Both the position numbers and the translations under genes were made by a program. The notes under the pieces are model-generated. The model had not been told where the DNA came from. It made no database searches and saw only the letters and a program-made list of their open reading frames with translations. Below are positions 1-49,778 of a stretch of 64,000 bases of DNA, piece by piece; position 1 is the stretch's first letter, and the number at the start of each line of letters is the position of its first letter. Origin of the DNA: Candidatus Cloacimonadota bacterium (lineage in GTDB: Bacteria; Cloacimonadota; Cloacimonadia; G963667145); NCBI GenBank assembly GCA_963667255.1, contig OY762940.1:128001-192000 (forward strand). Direction: 5' to 3'.

Positions 1-852
<852 letters not shown>

Positions 853-934
853 ATAAATTGTTTGATTTGATTGACTTTATTAGGTTTACTCTACACTTCT
901 ATAAATTTTTCAAGTAACTAAATTCAACGAGAGC

Positions 935-963
935 GATAATTGATTTTGGCGTTTTCGTGTCAA
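935..963 (-). promoter_or_regulatory. candidate rrn promoter
   Basis: TTGACA at 963-958 (minus), ~100 nt upstream of 16S; -10 box weak. A second TTGACG lies at 1110-1105. Confidence 0.4.
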
Positions 964-1203
964 ATATAATTTTCACTATTTTTTAACGCACAAAAAAAAC
1001 AATGTCTTCAATTTTTGTATTCAATATTTTCTCAACTGAAGACCTGCATTTAGACTCAAAAACTTCGCTCAATTGTGAATCTTATTTAAAACTACCTGTT
1101 TTGCCGTCAACACAATTTATTAGCTTTCTTATTTTTATGTGGCAATGAATGGTGGTAATTGTTTATTGGAAAAGAATAAGCAATTAATGATTTGTTTTCG
1201 ATA

Positions 1204-2464: not shown

Positions 2465-3133
2465 TTAATCATTTGAAGTAAGATTAATCTTATCTTCAAT
2501 AAAAGTTTTCCGAGCAATATTCCCAATGGTATTAGTAGAAACACCATCAACTGCTCCACCAACAATGCCACCAATCAGAGGGACAAGTTTGCCTAAATTA
2601 ACAACACCTTTTGAGCCAGCTTTTGTAATAAACCTAAACCCAATTTTTTGATTTATAGCGGTCAAAGTTTTCCCTGAAATTTTTCCTATTGCACTATTTA
2701 CAGTTTTGACCCCAGTAACTTTTGCAGCTTCCTTAAAAATGTCAACTCCAGGTGTCCCAACAAGACAACAATAAACAAGAGTTTTAACTCGATCATCTTT
2801 TAAATCATATCCTCCCATATGAGCAATAGCCGCTATCATTCTAATTTGAACATACATTACACTTGCAAGATTTGCAGGAATTGCGACAGGCATAGTAATC
2901 ATGCCTCCCACTCCTGTCAAAAATCCACTTGTACTTGTTTTGGCAATTTGATACCTTATCAGTGAATTAACACATTCAATTTTATTTTCATTTTTCTTTA
3001 TATAATCTTCCGCCATTTCTACAGCTGTTTCAAATCCTGGGAGACCATTTAAAGCCTTCTCATATGCAAAATCCAAAGCTTTTGTTATTACCCCTACTTC
3101 TTTTTTTGCTTCAATTTCTTTATTTTCTTCCAT
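2465..3133 (-). CDS. EcsC family protein
   Basis: GFLTGVGG..T.PVAIPAN...V...Q.RMIAAIA..GGYD and LGKLVPLIGGIVGG motifs typical of EcsC; GAGG RBS. Confidence 0.85.
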   Translation of the reverse strand: MEENKEIEAKKEVGVITKALDFAYEKALNGLPGFETAVEMAEDYIKKNENKIECVNSLIRYQIAKTSTSGFLTGVGGMITMPVAIPANLASVMYVQIRMIAAIAHMGGYDLKDDRVKTLVYCCLVGTPGVDIFKEAAKVTGVKTVNSAIGKISGKTLTAINQKIGFRFITKAGSKGVVNLGKLVPLIGGIVGGAVDGVSTNTIGNIARKTFIEDKINLTSND

Positions 3134-3172
3134 TCTACTAACCTCTCTTATTTAATTTCTTTTACTTCAACT

Positions 3173-3206
3173 AAAAAAAGGTCTCCCGACTATCTCGGAA
3201 GACCTT
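3173..3206 (-). terminator. intrinsic terminator / attenuator hairpin upstream of the EcsC gene
   Basis: Minus strand AAGGTCTTCCGA-GATAG-TCGGGAGACC followed by T7, 40 nt before the EcsC start codon. Confidence 0.8.
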
Positions 3207-3363
3207 CTTTGAAATCTCTATGAAACCGTTGACTATCAAGCCACTGACAGCCTCGACTGAACTGAACTGAACTGAACTGAACTGAACTGAACTGAACTGA
3301 ACTGAACTGAACTGAACTGAACTGAACTGAACTGAACTGAACTGAACTGTTTGTTTGCTTTTC
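3190..3363 (-). other. 3' part of an IS-interrupted leader ORF (..EKQTN-(SSVQF)6-SRGCQWLDSQRFHRDFKEGLPR*); original start ATG at 4491
   Basis: Joining the two sides at the 8-bp target duplication gives the open frame ATG AAA ATA GAA AAG CAA ACA..., ending at TAG in the terminator loop. Confidence 0.6.
3256..3349. repeat. pentanucleotide simple sequence repeat (ACTGA)18 + ACTG
   Basis: Perfect tandem array read directly from the sequence. Confidence 0.98.
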
Positions 3364-4474
3364 GGGAGTGTGCAAATAACTGGGTCTGAAATAAGACCTA
3401 ATTATGTTTGACAGAATAAGTTATGAACATTTATTAAAATGCCATGAGTATAATCAAAAAAAACGCTGTCCAAATTGTGATAGCTTAAACACAAAAAAGA
3501 AGGGATATATTTTCTCTGAAAGAACAACTAATCGTGGGAAAATTAAAGTCAAAACTCAACGATTTTATTGTAAAGATTGCCAAATAAGTTTTACCAATTT
3601 TGGATATAATAAGAGAACTCATTTTGCACCAAAATTCAAAGATAAGGTTGTTACTGACTATATTTCAACCAAAAGTTCTCTTTCTGAAGTTGCTAAAAGA
3701 CATGGGATTTGTAAAAATAGTATTCTTAATTGGATACCTCAGCGAGCTAATTTATATCAGGATAATGTGTTACACAGCAATATAGATGAGACAACAATTT
3801 ATATTGATGGCAAGGAAATTAAGATAAACGGTAAGCGAAAAGTTGTCTTAGTCGCCAGTAGCAAACTACTTGATAAACCAATATATTACAAGATTTATGA
3901 TAGAGAACATAGTAGTTCATCTGAAGACTTTTTGAATAGACTAAAAAAAATGTATGACAACAAAATAATTGGGATTGTGTCAGATTTTGGGCGAGGGAAG
4001 TGCTTTGTTAAGCCAGTTAACCAACTTTTTGAAGATGTTCCACATCAAATTTGCTTGGTTCATTATTTAAGAAGCGTTAATATCAATGTTCCTAAAACAA
4101 AAAAGAGTAAGTTTTTTAGACGAAATATTTTCTTTAAGAACTTGATTAAGAGCATTTTAAATGCTGAAACTTTACAAGAAGCTGAAAATAATTTAAGTTC
4201 GCTTAATCACTATGAAAAATTTTTTCGCCTAAAAATTCATAAGCGTTTTATTAAATCAATTAATCGAAACTTTGGTTTATTAACTGCTCATTTTCATTAC
4301 GATTTTTTGGATAAAACAACAAATAAAATTGAAAATATTAATCGACAATTGAATAGGAAATTAAAAAATTTAGACGGATTTAAATCTGAAAAAAATATGA
4401 ATCATTTTTTGAAAATTTGGTTCAATAATTATTCAAAAGGAGTGGAAATTAGACCCAATTAAATGCACGCTCCC
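3364..4474 (+). mobile_element. IS256/Mutator-like insertion sequence, 1111 bp
   Basis: 24-bp terminal inverted repeats with 20/24 match (GGGAGTGTGCAAATAACTGGGTCT at 3364-3387 vs 4451-4474); 8-bp target duplication TGCTTTTC at 3356-3363 and 4475-4482. Confidence 0.93.
3404..4462 (+). CDS. DDE transposase, IS256/Mutator-like, with N-terminal Zn ribbon and HTH
   Basis: IDG, VSDF, HQICLVH (CxxH) and TTNKIENINR motifs; CPNC...CKDC at the N-terminus. Confidence 0.9.
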   Translation: MFDRISYEHLLKCHEYNQKKRCPNCDSLNTKKKGYIFSERTTNRGKIKVKTQRFYCKDCQISFTNFGYNKRTHFAPKFKDKVVTDYISTKSSLSEVAKRHGICKNSILNWIPQRANLYQDNVLHSNIDETTIYIDGKEIKINGKRKVVLVASSKLLDKPIYYKIYDREHSSSSEDFLNRLKKMYDNKIIGIVSDFGRGKCFVKPVNQLFEDVPHQICLVHYLRSVNINVPKTKKSKFFRRNIFFKNLIKSILNAETLQEAENNLSSLNHYEKFFRLKIHKRFIKSINRNFGLLTAHFHYDFLDKTTNKIENINRQLNRKLKNLDGFKSEKNMNHFLKIWFNNYSKGVEIRPN

Positions 4475-4490
4475 TGCTTTTCTATTTTCA

Positions 4491-4526
4491 TAGTGCTACA
4501 AAAGTAATTTTATAGAATGATGTCAA
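4491..4526 (-). promoter_or_regulatory. candidate leaderless promoter (TTGACA-N29-ATG) of the leader ORF / EcsC cassette
   Basis: TTGACA at 4526-4521, ATG at 4491; same spacing upstream of csaA, the lolC-like gene and the panG-like gene. Confidence 0.55.
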
Positions 4527-4669: not shown

Positions 4670-5087
4670 GTATGCATTCCCCTGACCACATAAATGTAGT
4701 CTCAAAGATTAGCGGTATTTATGTGGTCAGAGGAACGAGTGGGGCGGTGGTGCAGGAATGAAGACGGTGGTGTGTCTTCTTGCTCTTCTATTCCTCATAC
4801 TCACGGAAGTGGGTATCCATTCTTGACTCGTTTCTTAAAAAAAAGCACCTGCTGTGTCCCCTATCCCCTCTGGATTCCCGCCTACGCGGGAATGAGATGT
4901 GAAGATGGGAATGAGAGAGGTGGTTTGGGTGCAGAGAGAGGTGGGGCAAAAAAACACTGGCGAGTTCCCAACTCGACAGTGCTCCGTATTTATTCATTAT
5001 TCATTCTTATCTTTTATTTACATTTACCCTTCTCCCTGCTCCTCTAATCTCCCAAATTATCCATTATCAATTATCACTTATTAATTG
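4670..5087. repeat. mosaic palindromic intergenic repeat, copy A
   Basis: ATTCCC-N8-GGGAAT at 4874-4893, CACTGGCGAG hairpin at 4955-4981, ATTATCA-type heptamers; modules shared with five other loci. Confidence 0.9.
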
Positions 5088-5441
5088 CTAAAAGCTCTTC
5101 CCCTTAATCCTATTATTCTCATCAAGAAGAATCACTTGTGGTTTATGCTCGGCTGCTAACTCCCTCTCAACTTGGCAATAGGAGAGAATAATCACTTTGT
5201 CGCCTCTCTGCACCATCCTCGCGGCAGCACCATTGAGGCAAATCTGACCCTCGCCTCCTTTGATAACATAAGTGGAGAACCTCGCACCATTGTCGATGTC
5301 CAAGATGTCCACCTTCTCGTTGATGAAAAAACCGGCAGCCTCTATCAATTTGGGGTCGATAGAGATAGACCCTTCGTAGTGCAAATCAGCGTCCGTCACT
5401 GTCGCTCTATGTAATTTTGCTCTTAACATTTCCACTAACAT
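5088..5441 (-). CDS. panD: aspartate 1-decarboxylase
   Basis: KLHRATVT..DLHYEGS self-cleavage motif, NGARFSTY, LNGAAAR. Confidence 0.97.
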   Translation of the reverse strand: MLVEMLRAKLHRATVTDADLHYEGSISIDPKLIEAAGFFINEKVDILDIDNGARFSTYVIKGGEGQICLNGAAARMVQRGDKVIILSYCQVERELAAEHKPQVILLDENNRIKGKSF

Positions 5442-45128: not shown

Positions 45129-48100
45129 CTATGGATAATTACTCAGTGTCACATCGGTAGCGACACAATTATTAACAGTGCCACTACTCTTCAAACCAAC
45201 AGTGGTTGACCTATCAGAAGGAGCCTTAACAATTCCATTAGTAGCAATGAGATCAGATACAGTAACACTTACAAGCTGTCCTATCAAACCACCTGCGACC
45301 CTAGTGGTGGCGGTAACATTAAGCCGAGTAATCGAGGAATTAGAAAAAGGTTGTTGACAATACCCGAAGAATCCCCCAGCGCATTCGGCAGCTGTGACAA
45401 CGGCACTGTCCACCGTGCAAGAGGTAACCTGAGCAGTTGCATGATAGGCAGATCCTACCAACCCTCCAGCATACTTGTTCGTAGCTGTAACAGTCACATA
45501 GTAGGCTGTATCACTGCTCAATGCTCCAGTGTTATATCCAATAAATCCGCCTACATATCTAAAACCCGTAGCGGTTACACTGTCAACTCTGCTATTAGAC
45601 ACAGCTCCCTCATTTTTTCCAATCAAACCACCTGCGTCTGCTTCCGATATCGAGGCACTTTTAACTACTATCCGAGTAGCCGAGCACAAACTAATTGCCG
45701 ATAGATTATGCCCGATGAGTCCGCCAACAGTGTTATTAGCTGTGACAGAGGCACTGTCCACCGTGCAGGAGGTAATATTTCCTGTCTTACTACCGCCGAG
45801 CAAACCGCCGACACATTGCCAACCCTTAGCGGTTACACTGTCAACCCTGCTATTAGAAACAACTCCAGTGTTATATCCGAGCAAGCCACCTGCGTATGCA
45901 TTATCTGATGCTATTTTAGCTTCAACCACTACCCGAGTAGCCGAGCACAAACTAATTGCCGATGCATTATTCCCGATGAGTCCGCCGGCATAGTTGCCCG
46001 TAGCTGTGACAGTGGCACTGTCCACCTTGCAGGATGTAATCGCTCCTGTCTGACTATAGCCGAGCAAGCCACCGACATATTGATCACCCGTAGCGGTTAC
46101 ACTGTCAACCCTGCTATTAGAAACAGCTCCAGTGTTATATCCGAGCAATCCGCCGACATAGTTCTTCGTAACTGTGACTGTCGTGTTGGATGCAGTATCT
46201 TTGGTCAATATTCCAAAGTTCTTGCCGATGAGTCCGCCGGTATGGCTATAACCTTTAACGGTTGCATTGTCAACCCTGCTATAAGATACATTTTTTTCAT
46301 TATATCCGAGCAAGCCTCCTACAGTACCCGCGTTATCAGCGGTAGAGGTAACTACTATCCGAGTAGCCGAGCACGAACTAATTTCCGAGTCATTATACCC
46401 AATGAGTCCGCCAACAGTGTTATTAGCTGTGACAGAGGCACTGTCCACCGTGCAGGAGGTAATATTTCCTGTCTTACTACCGCCGAGCAAACCGCCGACA
46501 CATTGCCAACCCTTAGCGGTTACACTGTCAACCCTGCTATTAGAAACAACTCCAGTGTTATATCCGAGCAAGCCACCTGCGTATGCATTACCTGATGCTA
46601 TTTTAGCTTCAACTACTACCCGAGTAGCCAAGCACGAACTAATTGTCGATGCATTATTCCCGATGAGTCCACCTGCGTATTGATTCGTAGCTGTGACAGA
46701 GGCACTGTCCACCGTGCAAGAGGTAACAGAAGCTGCCACACCGATATATCCGACCAAACCGCCGGCACTGGTGTCCGTAACTGTAACTCGCACACTATCA
46801 ACCCTGCATCCGTTAAGAATAGCAGAGGCACTACCAATAGTCCCGACCAAACCACCGGCATTTTTTAGAGCATTCACAGTCAGGTTTGACCCAGAGCTAT
46901 TTGTGATAGATTTCTCAGTTTGCCCAACCAATCCTCCCACTGCTTCGTTCCCAGATACAGTCACCTCTCTCACCAAGCAAATGTCGATAGTTGCATTATT
47001 ATACCCTACGAGTCCACCAGTATATGAAGTAGCTGTGACTGTCGTGTTGGATGCGGTATCTCTGGTCAAAGTTCCAGTGTTATTACCAATAAAACCACCG
47101 ACATGTTGATAACCCGTAGCGGTTACATTGTCAACATTGCTATGGGAAACAGCTCCAGTGTTCTTTCCGACCAAACCACCTGCGTATAGATTGCTTGAGG
47201 CATTGCCAACGCTAACCACTATCCGAGTAGCCGAGCATGTATCAATTTTCGATTCATTATGCCCGATGAGTCCGCCAGCATAGCTGGTCGTAGCTGTGAC
47301 AGAGGCACTGTCCACCGTGCAGGAAGTAATATCTCCTGTCGCACTATAGCCGAGTAAACCGCCTGCTCTGTCGTTCGTAGCTGTGACTCGCACATAAGAT
47401 GCGGTATCTCTGGTCAAAGCTCCAGTGTTATATCCAATAAATCCGCCTACAAACGCATAACCCGTAGCAGTTACACTGTCAACTTTGCTACCAGACACAG
47501 TTCCAGTGTTCTTTCCGAGCAAGCCTCCTACAACACCCGCGTTATTGTTAACTTTTACTACTACCCGAGTAGCCGAGCACGAATTAATTGTCGATTCATT
47601 ATTCCCGATGAGTCCACCTGCGTGTTGATTCATAGCTGTGACAGAGGCACTGTCCACCGTGCAGGAAGTAATCGCTCCTGTTTTACTATAGCCGAGCAAA
47701 CCACCGACATATTGATAACCCGTAGCGATTACAGTGTCAACTTTGCTATTAGATACAGCACCAGTATTATATCCGAGCAAACCACCTGCGTATTGATTGC
47801 CTGTGGCATTGCCAACGCTAACCACTACCCGAGTAGCCGAGCACAAACTAATTGCCGATGCATTATTCCCGATGAGTCCGCCGGCATAGCTGCCCGTAGC
47901 TGTGACTCGCACATAAGATGCGGTGTCGCTGGTCAATATTCCACTGCTCATACCGATAAATCCGCCGATAAATTGATTACCCGTAGCGGTTACAGTGTCA
48001 ACTTTGCTATTAGATACAGCTCCAGTGTTATGTCCGAGCAGACCACCTGCGTATTGACCGCCACAGCCAACCACTACCCGAGTAGCCGAGCACGAATTAA

Positions 48101-49778
48101 TTGTCGATTCATTCTTCCCGATGAGTCCACCGGCATGGCTGGTCGTAGCTGTGACAGAGGCACTGTCCACCGTGCAGGAGGTAACAGAAGTTACCTGACT
48201 GATATGTCCGACCAAACCTCCGGCATAGCTGGTCGTAGCTGTGACTCGCACACTATCAACCCTGCATCCGCTAAGAATAACAGAAGAACTATTAATAACC
48301 CCGACCAAACCACCTGCATTATTACCAGCTTTCACAGTCAGGTTTGACCCAGAGCTATTTGTGATAGATTTCTCAGTTTTCCCAACCAGTCCTCCCACTA
48401 TTTCGTTCATAGCTGTGGCAGTTATCCCTCTCACCAAGCAATTGTCGATAGTTCCACCACTATACCCTACGAGTCCACCAACATAGCTGGTCGTAGCTGT
48501 GACAGTCGTGTTGGAGGCGGTATCTCTGGTCAAAGCTCCAGAGTTATAACCAATAAATCCGCCTACAAACGCATAACCCGCAGCGGTTACACTGTCAACT
48601 TTGCTATAAGATACAGCTCCAGTGTTCTTTCCGAGCAAGCCTCCTACAATACCCGCGTTTTCGTTAACTTTAGCTACTATCCGAGTAGCCGAGCAGGAGT
48701 CAATTTTCGATTCATTATTCCCGATGAGTCCACCTGCGCATTGATTCACAGCTGTGACAGAGGCACTGTCCACCGTGCAGGATGTAATATTTCCTGTCTG
48801 ACTACCGCCGAGCAAACCACCGACATCTCGATAACCCGTAGCGATTACAGTGTCAACTTTGCTATTAGATACAGCACCAGTATTAAATCCGAGCAAACCA
48901 CCTGCGTATTGACTGCCTGTGGCATTGCCAACGCTAACCACTACCCGAGTAGCCGAGCAGGAGTCAATTTTCGAGGAACTCCCCCCGATGAGTCCACCGG
49001 CATTGCTGCCCGTAGCTGTGACATTTATTCCTATCACCGAGGATCTTTCCACAGTCCCCGCTGAATACCCGATCAAACCACCTATATTGTTCACACCGGC
49101 AATTGCAATAGATGCCTCAGTAGAAGGTCTGACATGGCAGTTCCGCACCACTCCACCACTCGGGAGACTATCCACCAAAATTCCCCTATTGCTACCAGTA
49201 GTAGTAGTAACAATTTTCTTTATCTCAAGAGTAAGATTGAGGACAGTATCTATATCGTGAAAAAATCCGTAGCTACTACTGATGTTGGGATGATTTTTAA
49301 GACTAACATTAGAAATGGTATGTCCACCACCGTCAAACACCTTGATGCCACTAAAGGAATAAATAGTATCTGTCAGATTTATATCACTCTTCAGAGTCAC
49401 TTTATACGGTTTATACTTCCCAAATAAAGCCTTAAATTCATCATTGCTATTAATAGTCAGCTCCACACTAAGAGGGATGTAAGTCTCCTGACCTGACCGC
49501 TGATATGGGAGAGCCTTGCTACCGGCGGGGCGTAGCCACGGAGTGCCCTTGCTACCGGTGGTGCTGGTATTAATCCCCCAGCCTAAACCATTCCAAAAAG
49601 CATCTGACTGCAACTCATCTTTCGTCTTGGGAGAACCATTTTGAGCAGCAGCCAGCAGAGCGTTGCCAGTCGGCACGGCACTGCTACGGTAAAGAGACTC
49701 TATGTCTATATCCACCGCAAAAGCGGATAAGAAACAGACACTCAAACATATTAAACTGAAAATCTTTTTTAAATTCAC
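45129..49778 (-). CDS. exported GLUG-motif repeat protein (beta-helical adhesin-like), ~1549 aa
   Basis: Signal peptide (..CFLSAFA), dozens of ~27-30-aa xGG(L/F)(I/L/V)G repeats; GTG start after GGAGGAG. Confidence 0.85.
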   Translation of the reverse strand: MNLKKIFSLICLSVCFLSAFAVDIDIESLYRSSAVPTGNALLAAAQNGSPKTKDELQSDAFWNGLGWGINTSTTGSKGTPWLRPAGSKALPYQRSGQETYIPLSVELTINSNDEFKALFGKYKPYKVTLKSDINLTDTIYSFSGIKVFDGGGHTISNVSLKNHPNISSSYGFFHDIDTVLNLTLEIKKIVTTTTGSNRGILVDSLPSGGVVRNCHVRPSTEASIAIAGVNNIGGLIGYSAGTVERSSVIGINVTATGSNAGGLIGGSSSKIDSCSATRVVVSVGNATGSQYAGGLLGFNTGAVSNSKVDTVIATGYRDVGGLLGGSQTGNITSCTVDSASVTAVNQCAGGLIGNNESKIDSCSATRIVAKVNENAGIVGGLLGKNTGAVSYSKVDSVTAAGYAFVGGFIGYNSGALTRDTASNTTVTATTSYVGGLVGYSGGTIDNCLVRGITATAMNEIVGGLVGKTEKSITNSSGSNLTVKAGNNAGGLVGVINSSSVILSGCRVDSVRVTATTSYAGGLVGHISQVTSVTSCTVDSASVTATTSHAGGLIGKNESTINSCSATRVVVGCGGQYAGGLLGHNTGAVSNSKVDTVTATGNQFIGGFIGMSSGILTSDTASYVRVTATGSYAGGLIGNNASAISLCSATRVVVSVGNATGNQYAGGLLGYNTGAVSNSKVDTVIATGYQYVGGLLGYSKTGAITSCTVDSASVTAMNQHAGGLIGNNESTINSCSATRVVVKVNNNAGVVGGLLGKNTGTVSGSKVDSVTATGYAFVGGFIGYNTGALTRDTASYVRVTATNDRAGGLLGYSATGDITSCTVDSASVTATTSYAGGLIGHNESKIDTCSATRIVVSVGNASSNLYAGGLVGKNTGAVSHSNVDNVTATGYQHVGGFIGNNTGTLTRDTASNTTVTATSYTGGLVGYNNATIDICLVREVTVSGNEAVGGLVGQTEKSITNSSGSNLTVNALKNAGGLVGTIGSASAILNGCRVDSVRVTVTDTSAGGLVGYIGVAASVTSCTVDSASVTATNQYAGGLIGNNASTISSCLATRVVVEAKIASGNAYAGGLLGYNTGVVSNSRVDSVTAKGWQCVGGLLGGSKTGNITSCTVDSASVTANNTVGGLIGYNDSEISSCSATRIVVTSTADNAGTVGGLLGYNEKNVSYSRVDNATVKGYSHTGGLIGKNFGILTKDTASNTTVTVTKNYVGGLLGYNTGAVSNSRVDSVTATGDQYVGGLLGYSQTGAITSCKVDSATVTATGNYAGGLIGNNASAISLCSATRVVVEAKIASDNAYAGGLLGYNTGVVSNSRVDSVTAKGWQCVGGLLGGSKTGNITSCTVDSASVTANNTVGGLIGHNLSAISLCSATRIVVKSASISEADAGGLIGKNEGAVSNSRVDSVTATGFRYVGGFIGYNTGALSSDTAYYVTVTATNKYAGGLVGSAYHATAQVTSCTVDSAVVTAAECAGGFFGYCQQPFSNSSITRLNVTATTRVAGGLIGQLVSVTVSDLIATNGIVKAPSDRSTTVGLKSSGTVNNCVATDVTLSNYP

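Follow-up and report, generated by a model that had tools for sequence, protein, structure and literature searches.

The DNA considered here is a 64,000-nt window (positions 128,001 to 192,000 of contig OY762940.1, to whose first letter all unqualified coordinates refer) from a Candidatus Cloacimonadota bacterium, whose genome of 1.59 Mb in one contig is designated G000 and is compared below with five genomes of the same genus (G001-G005). The minus strand of the window carries a cassette that lies between a 16S ribosomal RNA (rRNA) gene and panD (5088-5441), is headed by an EcsC-family gene, and is preceded by a short leader open reading frame (ORF) with a pentanucleotide array and a predicted terminator. 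With a probability of about 0.75 this leader is read as a phase-variable attenuator of the type known from the pil1 locus of Streptococcus gallolyticus, which an IS256-like insertion sequence (IS) now splits, probably locking this copy in a low state.

According to the proposed mechanism transcription would start at or beside the leader ATG, 28-29 nt after a TTGAC(N) box, and the leader would be translated without a Shine-Dalgarno (SD) sequence, as statistics on promoters and genes of the genus suggest. Reversible slippage of the CAGTT array would shift the stop of the leader ORF, which would lie either 31 nt short of the terminator hairpin (OFF, one phase) or within or past it (ON, two phases), and a ribosome standing no more than about 12 nt from the stem would block the hairpin, as pil1 and the terminator spacing of the genome itself suggest. 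It is such phase switching that we infer for this locus. Normally the switch would guard surface lipoproteins; synteny suggests that defence-type cargo joined a copy next to an rRNA operon and that the frame of leader, GIY-YIG gene, and rRNA operon now stands at both rRNA operons with differing cargo between.

Leader ORF, Repeat Array, and Predicted Terminator

When positions 3364-4482 (the IS plus one 8-bp target duplication) are removed in silico, TTGACA-N29-ATG (4526 to 4491) and a 60-aa ORF are restored, with every coordinate as proposed in an earlier reading of the letters alone (the sequence-only reading). An IS-free twin locus at 983.7 kb of G000 has 22 units of CAGTT behind a natively intact leader, and the reconstruction is therefore independently confirmed. 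The array comprises 18.8 copies at 100% identity, 18 of the CAGTT units being whole; it has no stop codon in the three sense frames and stops in all three antisense frames. With 3k+2, 3k, or 3k+1 units the gap from stop to stem is +31, -15, or -34 nt, respectively, and no reading phase fuses the leader to EcsC. The absence of sense stops, the three stop positions, and the lack of a fusion had all been claimed in the sequence-only reading and proved correct.

The terminator hairpin has a predicted energy of -23.1 kcal/mol (z -6.2), and 0 of 200 shuffled sequences were equally stable. In Rfam no family matched the leader, and the hairpin had just a sub-threshold ctRNA match (E 0.21). By itself the stop pattern is weak evidence, because 79% of shuffled spacers at this locus also provide both ON and OFF phases; random 5-mers are stop-free in 76%. 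The recurrence of the whole layout is beyond chance: the six leaders account for 6 of the 7 perfect arrays in G000 that have units of 2-9 nt, four or more copies, and a length of 20 nt or more, and the remaining array is a 9-mer.

The Family of Repeat Leaders

A profile built from the post-repeat region of six G000 loci and three loci of relatives gave exactly six G000 matches in nhmmer at E < 1e-12 (the next at 0.18). All six show TTGAC-N28/29-ATG, an array, and a hairpin, with units of CAGTT (18 and 22 copies), 4-mers (30 and 5), and 8-mers (9 and 8). Six further members in 4 of the 5 same-genus genomes bring the family to 12 loci in the genus, so that the same layout, which the sequence-only reading had proposed to look for in related genomes, does stand ahead of other cassettes. 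Three members were found by pattern, two in G001 (9 and 21 units, near-identical flanks) and one in G002. An RNA model made from the post-repeat part alone and run over 61 genomes returned its nine training loci and 13 weaker matches, of which three (in G005, G004, and G002) keep the GTCAA spacer and are each preceded by an ATG and an array with units of 4, 4, or 7 nt, these arrays lying outside what the model had been given; the other ten are plain terminators without an array. G003, a genome 97% complete, yielded no member of the family. Among 232 genomes of the phylum the GTCA-type pattern occurs only in G000, G001, and G002; the family is confined to this genus among the genomes searched, public records carrying it are labelled Cloacimonadota, and pattern scans of metagenome and viral contigs gave 0 matches.

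The 12 members share more than the bare layout. Their units measure 4, 5, 7, or 8 nt, never a triplet, and are sense-stop-free in all 12, with antisense stops in 11; TTGAC-N28/29-ATG is present in 11 members and a hairpin with a U-tract likewise in 11, and the stem shows double-sided changes in 7 of 13 consensus pairs (9 sequences). One stop is kept 23-31 nt before the stem in every member, with a codon that varies between TGA, TAA, and TAG. ON and OFF windows set after nine members had been viewed accommodated 11 of the 12 and were replaced by a genome-derived 12-nt limit, ON being a stop within 12 nt of the stem or beyond; under this limit each of the 12 has at least one ON and at least one OFF phase, and nine have two ON phases and one OFF. 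Unit counts differ though flanks are alike, both between the twins (18 vs 22) and between the two G001 copies (9 vs 21).

The GTCAA motif is invariant in the nine aligned members and present in all 12, though it was also used to choose the array there. It sits 20-29 nt upstream of the stem and reads as the promoter box of the lineage on the opposite strand. A conserved pause or anti-terminator hairpin near the early stop was considered and discarded, as z ranged from -1.7 to +0.3 over 8 folds and consensus pairs were absent.

The pattern search in genome contigs gave 67 matches, 3 of this family, 47 of unrelated Orbaceae repeats, and 17 others. In Orbaceae bacterium ac157xtp the 47 loci consist of a sigma70-type promoter ending in TATAAT, an A-run, a perfect (GTCA)10-27 array, and then a pyrimidine-rich stretch; this is a separate, very large family that probably works otherwise, because the ATG overlaps the -10 box. 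Arrays of (GTCA)11-32 just after an ATG were also seen in Oscillospiraceae, Pasteurellaceae, Saccharibacteria, and Gallibacterium records, where they may mark phase-variable genes or leaders.

Probable Leaderless Start and Proposed Ribosome Occlusion

The leader has neither an SD nor a TATAAT, which appears to be usual in this lineage. Both rRNA promoters in all five relatives likewise show TTGAC and lack a TATAAT, a conserved leader word mostly following 28 nt on, and 17 of 43 tRNAs have TTGAC within 90 nt, six of these 32-35 nt from the mature end. The strong promoters of the genus thus appear to be built from TTGAC, to have no TATAAT that can be recognised, and to start transcription 28-29 nt further on; the tandem rRNA promoters carry the same leader word at the start position. 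An SD precedes none of 11 script-called genes with TTGAC-N28/29-ATG vs 80 of 112 with TTGAC 44-62 nt upstream (p 3.7e-6), and TTGAC-N28-30-ATG-ARAAT occurs 20 times in the five relatives vs 2 for the reversed control. From these counts the leader ATG probably lies at the transcription start and is likely leaderless. A sigma70-like TTAACA-N18-TAAAAT (4560-4531) was rejected as the family promoter, because twin homology begins only at about 4540.

Among 57 predicted gene-end terminators, counted so that stems overlapping the stop were allowed, the stem begins 13-30 nt from the stop in 47, more distantly in 6, at 7-12 nt in 4, and at 6 nt or less in none; such a distribution would be expected if folding is prevented by a trailing ribosome. 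A 12-nt stop-to-stem criterion for coupled translation was reportedly used in a Bacillus subtilis study.

The Insertion Sequence and the Present State of the Locus

The IS is present in 18 genome copies, of which the uninterrupted ones are 99.7-100% identical and therefore spread recently, and an exact 8-bp target duplication accompanies 16 of the 18. Elements of the IS256/Mutator family possess terminal inverted repeats and make target duplications of 8-9 bp. The present element resembles them in its Mutator DDE domain, 8-bp duplication, and imperfect inverted repeats and differs in the N-terminal Zn ribbon and helix-turn-helix (HTH) of its transposase. The latter scores 45.1 bits against PF00872 (cut-off 21) and, under the NCBIfam cut-off of 150, 58 bits against NF033543 and 41 bits against NF048019, for which reason the label "IS256-like" is used.

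In the sequenced genome the IS has put an end to any switching of the cassette by repeat number, because the leader ATG now opens a 10-codon ORF ending within the IS, at whose end a terminator-like hairpin is found. Any transcript would first need to run through the 1.1-kb IS and would then reach the leader terminator untranslated, and by analogy with the pil1 start-codon mutant the copy is probably locked low. Since the leader is interrupted in the sequenced genome, the locus is an inactivated copy of a pil1-type design, not a working member. The proposal of the sequence-only reading that repeat number switches the whole cassette is thus well supported for the design of the element, given the pil1/pil3 match, the two ON and one OFF phases, and the 12 loci, and fails for the sequenced genome with its IS-split leader. 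An in-frame TTG at 3375 inside the IS end, which would open a 61-aa ORF, was set aside as an unlikely rescue start because it has no SD.

Family member D carries the same IS as well (G000 898280-899390), inserted between the terminator and the lipoprotein start. That two of the 18 insertions fall within about 1.5 kb has p about 0.009, assuming that 12% of the genome is available, and the two insertions in family loci may reflect target bias or selection for silencing. In member F a different IS (IS3-like, by reading of its sequence) stands just after the lipoprotein gene.

Cargo Genes, the Twin Locus, and a Proposed History of the Island

The features of the locus are collected in Table 1. The cargo genes are 37-56 nt apart, and a single transcript may cover the whole cassette.

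Table 1. Features of the repeat-leader locus, its insertion sequence, and its cargo in window coordinates.
Feature	Position	Strand	Remarks
TTGACA promoter box	4521..4526	-	29 nt upstream of leader ATG; no TATAAT at normal spacing
Leader ORF 5' end	4475..4491	-	ATG 4491-4489, without SD, likely leaderless; holds upstream 8-bp duplication 4475-4482
IS256/Mutator-like IS	3364..4474	+	1,111 bp; 24-bp imperfect terminal inverted repeats, 20/24 matching
Transposase, 352 aa	3404..4462	+	N-terminal Zn ribbon, HTH, Mutator DDE domain
Downstream 8-bp target duplication	3356..3363	-	identical to 4475-4482
(CAGTT)18 microsatellite	3256..3349	-	whole units 3349-3260, within leader ORF
Early stop TGA	3236..3238	-	3k+2 units; 31 nt upstream of stem; predicted OFF phase
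GTCAA motif	3229..3233	-	invariant in family; TTGAC on opposite strand; role unexplained
Intrinsic terminator (predicted)	3173..3204	-	10-bp stem 3204-3195/3189-3180, 5-nt loop, U7 tail 3179-3173
3k-unit stop TAG	3192-3190	-	in hairpin loop
3k+1-unit stop TAG	3173-3171	-	past U-tract
EcsC-family protein, 222 aa	2465..3133	-	PF12787 E 5e-10; own SD 3147-3142
Small hydrophobic protein, 79 aa	2188..2427	-	no Pfam, PADLOC, or NCBIfam match
TerB-like protein, 133 aa	1746..2147	-	PF05099 E 1.7e-10
GIY-YIG nuclease-domain protein, 127 aa	1306..1689	-	PF01541 E 5.9e-7; common to twin locus
rRNA operon promoter region	852..1110	-	TTGAC boxes at 1110 and 963; downstream island boundary; 16S rRNA 851-1

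The EcsC protein matches the PADLOC candidate PDC-S29 (E 5e-83, 215 of 220 positions), and PDC systems are candidates by the source's own statement in its accessible text (10.1101/2024.01.29.577857); in that of PMC11514479 PDC-S29 appears in a table only. The likeness consists in this full-length match, while the neighbouring small protein, TerB-like, and GIY-YIG genes differ from it in having no tblastn match in any of the 80 loci of EcsC homologues, many of which are short. With this query EcsC was not found in the five same-genus genomes. If the defence link is true, this candidate would merit assay, because the twin slot holds a validated system type.

The cargo of the twin (G000 983.9-987.4 kb) is a predicted Eleos pair with LeoBC (E 2e-114) and LeoA (E 5e-126; 592 bits against NF041922, cut-off 325). 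The tandem order agrees with the two-gene, dynamin-like, Leo-homologous Eleos system, a type that protects against jumbo phages according to the accessible part of 10.1101/2022.05.11.491447, and the pair, which lies outside the window, differs in standing behind a repeat-bearing leader. The twins are homologous from promoter to hairpin and again from window position 1714 through the GIY-YIG gene into the rRNA operons, of which the genome has just two (98.5% over 1.7 kb); the cargo alone differs.

The other four G000 copies front proteins with lipoprotein-like signal peptides, as read from their sequence, and with FGE-sulfatase-like, fn3, F5/8, or PPC domains. In G001 panD abuts the rRNA promoter and there is no island, and the site equivalent to the twin in G002-G005 holds lipoprotein-like genes, behind a leader of the same hairpin type in G002 and a plain promoter in G003-G005. 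The simplest history would be that a lipoprotein switch beside one rRNA operon gained defence-type cargo and was then copied to the second. A further step, somewhat less probable than its opposite, is that a leaderless, repeat-driven attenuator of surface lipoproteins was taken over for bet hedging with anti-phage systems of the non-restriction kind. Its frame would be fixed and its cargo interchangeable, and cells would be ON or OFF at random; if so, a copy would become fixed OFF through an IS insertion or ON through loss of the terminator.

Clusters of REP-like palindromes and heptamer repeats lie at 4690-5087 and 1190-1300, with dozens of copies in G000 and G003/G004, and tandem repeats of 261-342 bp at 45563-48155 are probably repeat domains of a large surface protein.

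Weighing the Evidence and Alternative Explanations

Several points count against a switchable attenuator at this locus or in the family at large. In the extant genome the leader ORF is not continuous between its ATG and the end of the array, interrupted as it is by the IS (3364-4474). Shuffled spacers give both states at 70-87% per locus, so that their presence at all 12 loci has a joint probability of 0.05, or 0.08 when two near-duplicates are removed, the members being related. One G002 member (L251) has no TTGAC box at the usual spacing, and the start-site and gene sets used for the promoter comparisons were crude script calls. The public read data comprise contigs of 4 runs from at most 3 samples of one study, of which runs X3 and X4 scarcely cover the locus. 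The IS-free alleles for which the sequence-only reading had proposed to search did not appear: no joint that skips the IS occurs in the contigs of the 4 runs, and the best-covered sample (two runs) gave contigs of the IS allele only, with a junction depth of 87 vs 85 in the flank. A minority IS-free allele is possible, because contigs drop rare variants. These contigs skip the array at this locus, and locus D (5 units) showed no length variant in contigs. As regards the cargo, PDC-S29 is a candidate without assayed activity in the accessible text of its source (10.1101/2024.01.29.577857). The homology of the twin stops inside the 3' arm of the hairpin (G000 983.89-983.96 kb), the last two pairs and the U-tract being gone, and the attenuator there may be leaky; the break looks as if the Eleos cargo had joined at this point. 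Neither defence-linked copy is thus an intact switch today, though both arrays are long and perfect.

This damage to both defence-linked copies is what would be expected if the leader here were a dead relic copied with the rRNA region, whose repeat never controlled these genes, the cassette being silent or otherwise driven. Such a view could draw on the extra TTGAC boxes (in the IS at 3552 and in ecsC at 2920, 2745, and 2665) and on the lack of a repeat array upstream of EcsC homologues in all 71 loci with at least 250 nt upstream (80 fetched). It is nevertheless improbable, since the terminator, the array, and the spacing to the ecsC SD are intact here, the IS arrived recently (its full copies are 99.7-100% identical), the stretch from the hairpin to ecsC contains no TTGAC, and a transcript borne by the IS would meet the terminator untranslated. 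Much the same low probability is given to an array acting at the level of DNA or antisense RNA, where GTCAA, being TTGAC on the opposite strand, would drive a counter-transcript and tract length would tune promoter interference. The invariance of GTCAA in nine of nine members, followed on the antisense side by AT-rich DNA resembling the sense promoters, fits this view, as does the failure of a hairpin role for the motif in the folds described above (z -1.7 to +0.3, no consensus pairs); it leaves unexplained why units are non-triplet and sense-stop-free in 12 of 12 members, why an ATG stands at the leaderless position, and why the early stop is kept despite its changing codon.

Even less probable is read-through set by total tract length or by Rho-dependent termination, and not by hairpin and reading phase. 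The product of G000 59.0-60.4 kb, which we take from its motifs to be a Rho-like protein, counts for it, and it could apply to the twin, which is without a U-tract. Against it, the array shows no excess of C over G, a hairpin with a U-tract is retained in 11 of 12 members, and the stem covaries. Control of Rho termination by an upstream ORF as such is known (PMC12360218, accessible text).

Comparison with Known Systems

The mechanism is not new: it is the published attenuator of pil1/pil3 in S. gallolyticus, where, according to the accessible text of PMC3894217, a pentamer array in a leader ORF followed by a terminator was proven experimentally to act as a switch. Expression of pil1 is low with the stop at least 28 nt upstream of the stem and high with the stop 4 nt upstream or inside it; switching occurs at about 5e-3 per generation, and a start-codon mutant shows uniformly low expression (PMC3894217). 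A literature search that most subscription papers lay outside returned no primary report of the mechanism beyond pil1/pil3 of one streptococcus, nothing on repeat-leader control of defence genes, and nothing on promoters of the present phylum. What is new here is the phylum, the likely leaderless start, the multi-unit family, and the interchangeable defence-type cargo. A 12-member family with four unit lengths in a distant uncultured lineage suggests a general, portable design, and the element is small enough for reporter testing. If the defence link is true, costly non-restriction defences would vary from cell to cell with the coding sequence untouched.

As far as the pil1/pil3 account is accessible, the systems have in common a pentanucleotide array in a short 5' ORF, a terminator ahead of the first gene, and two ON phases and one OFF, and the low state that follows lost leader translation is the one which the IS should impose here. 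They differ in that the pil1 leader is SD-led behind a canonical -35/-10 promoter, whereas a likely leaderless start behind a TTGAC-only promoter is found here, and in that the present leaders form a multi-copy family with 4-, 5-, 7-, and 8-nt units in a distant phylum, the likeness being one of design. The cargo here also includes cytoplasmic defence-type genes, and the copy of the window is IS-interrupted and known from sequence alone. With Escherichia coli trp attenuation, as touched on in the same source (PMC3894217), the leader shares the principle that the position of a ribosome on a leader ORF decides whether the terminator forms; the difference is that no amino acid is sensed and no alternative antiterminator was found here, the input being a heritable change in repeat number.

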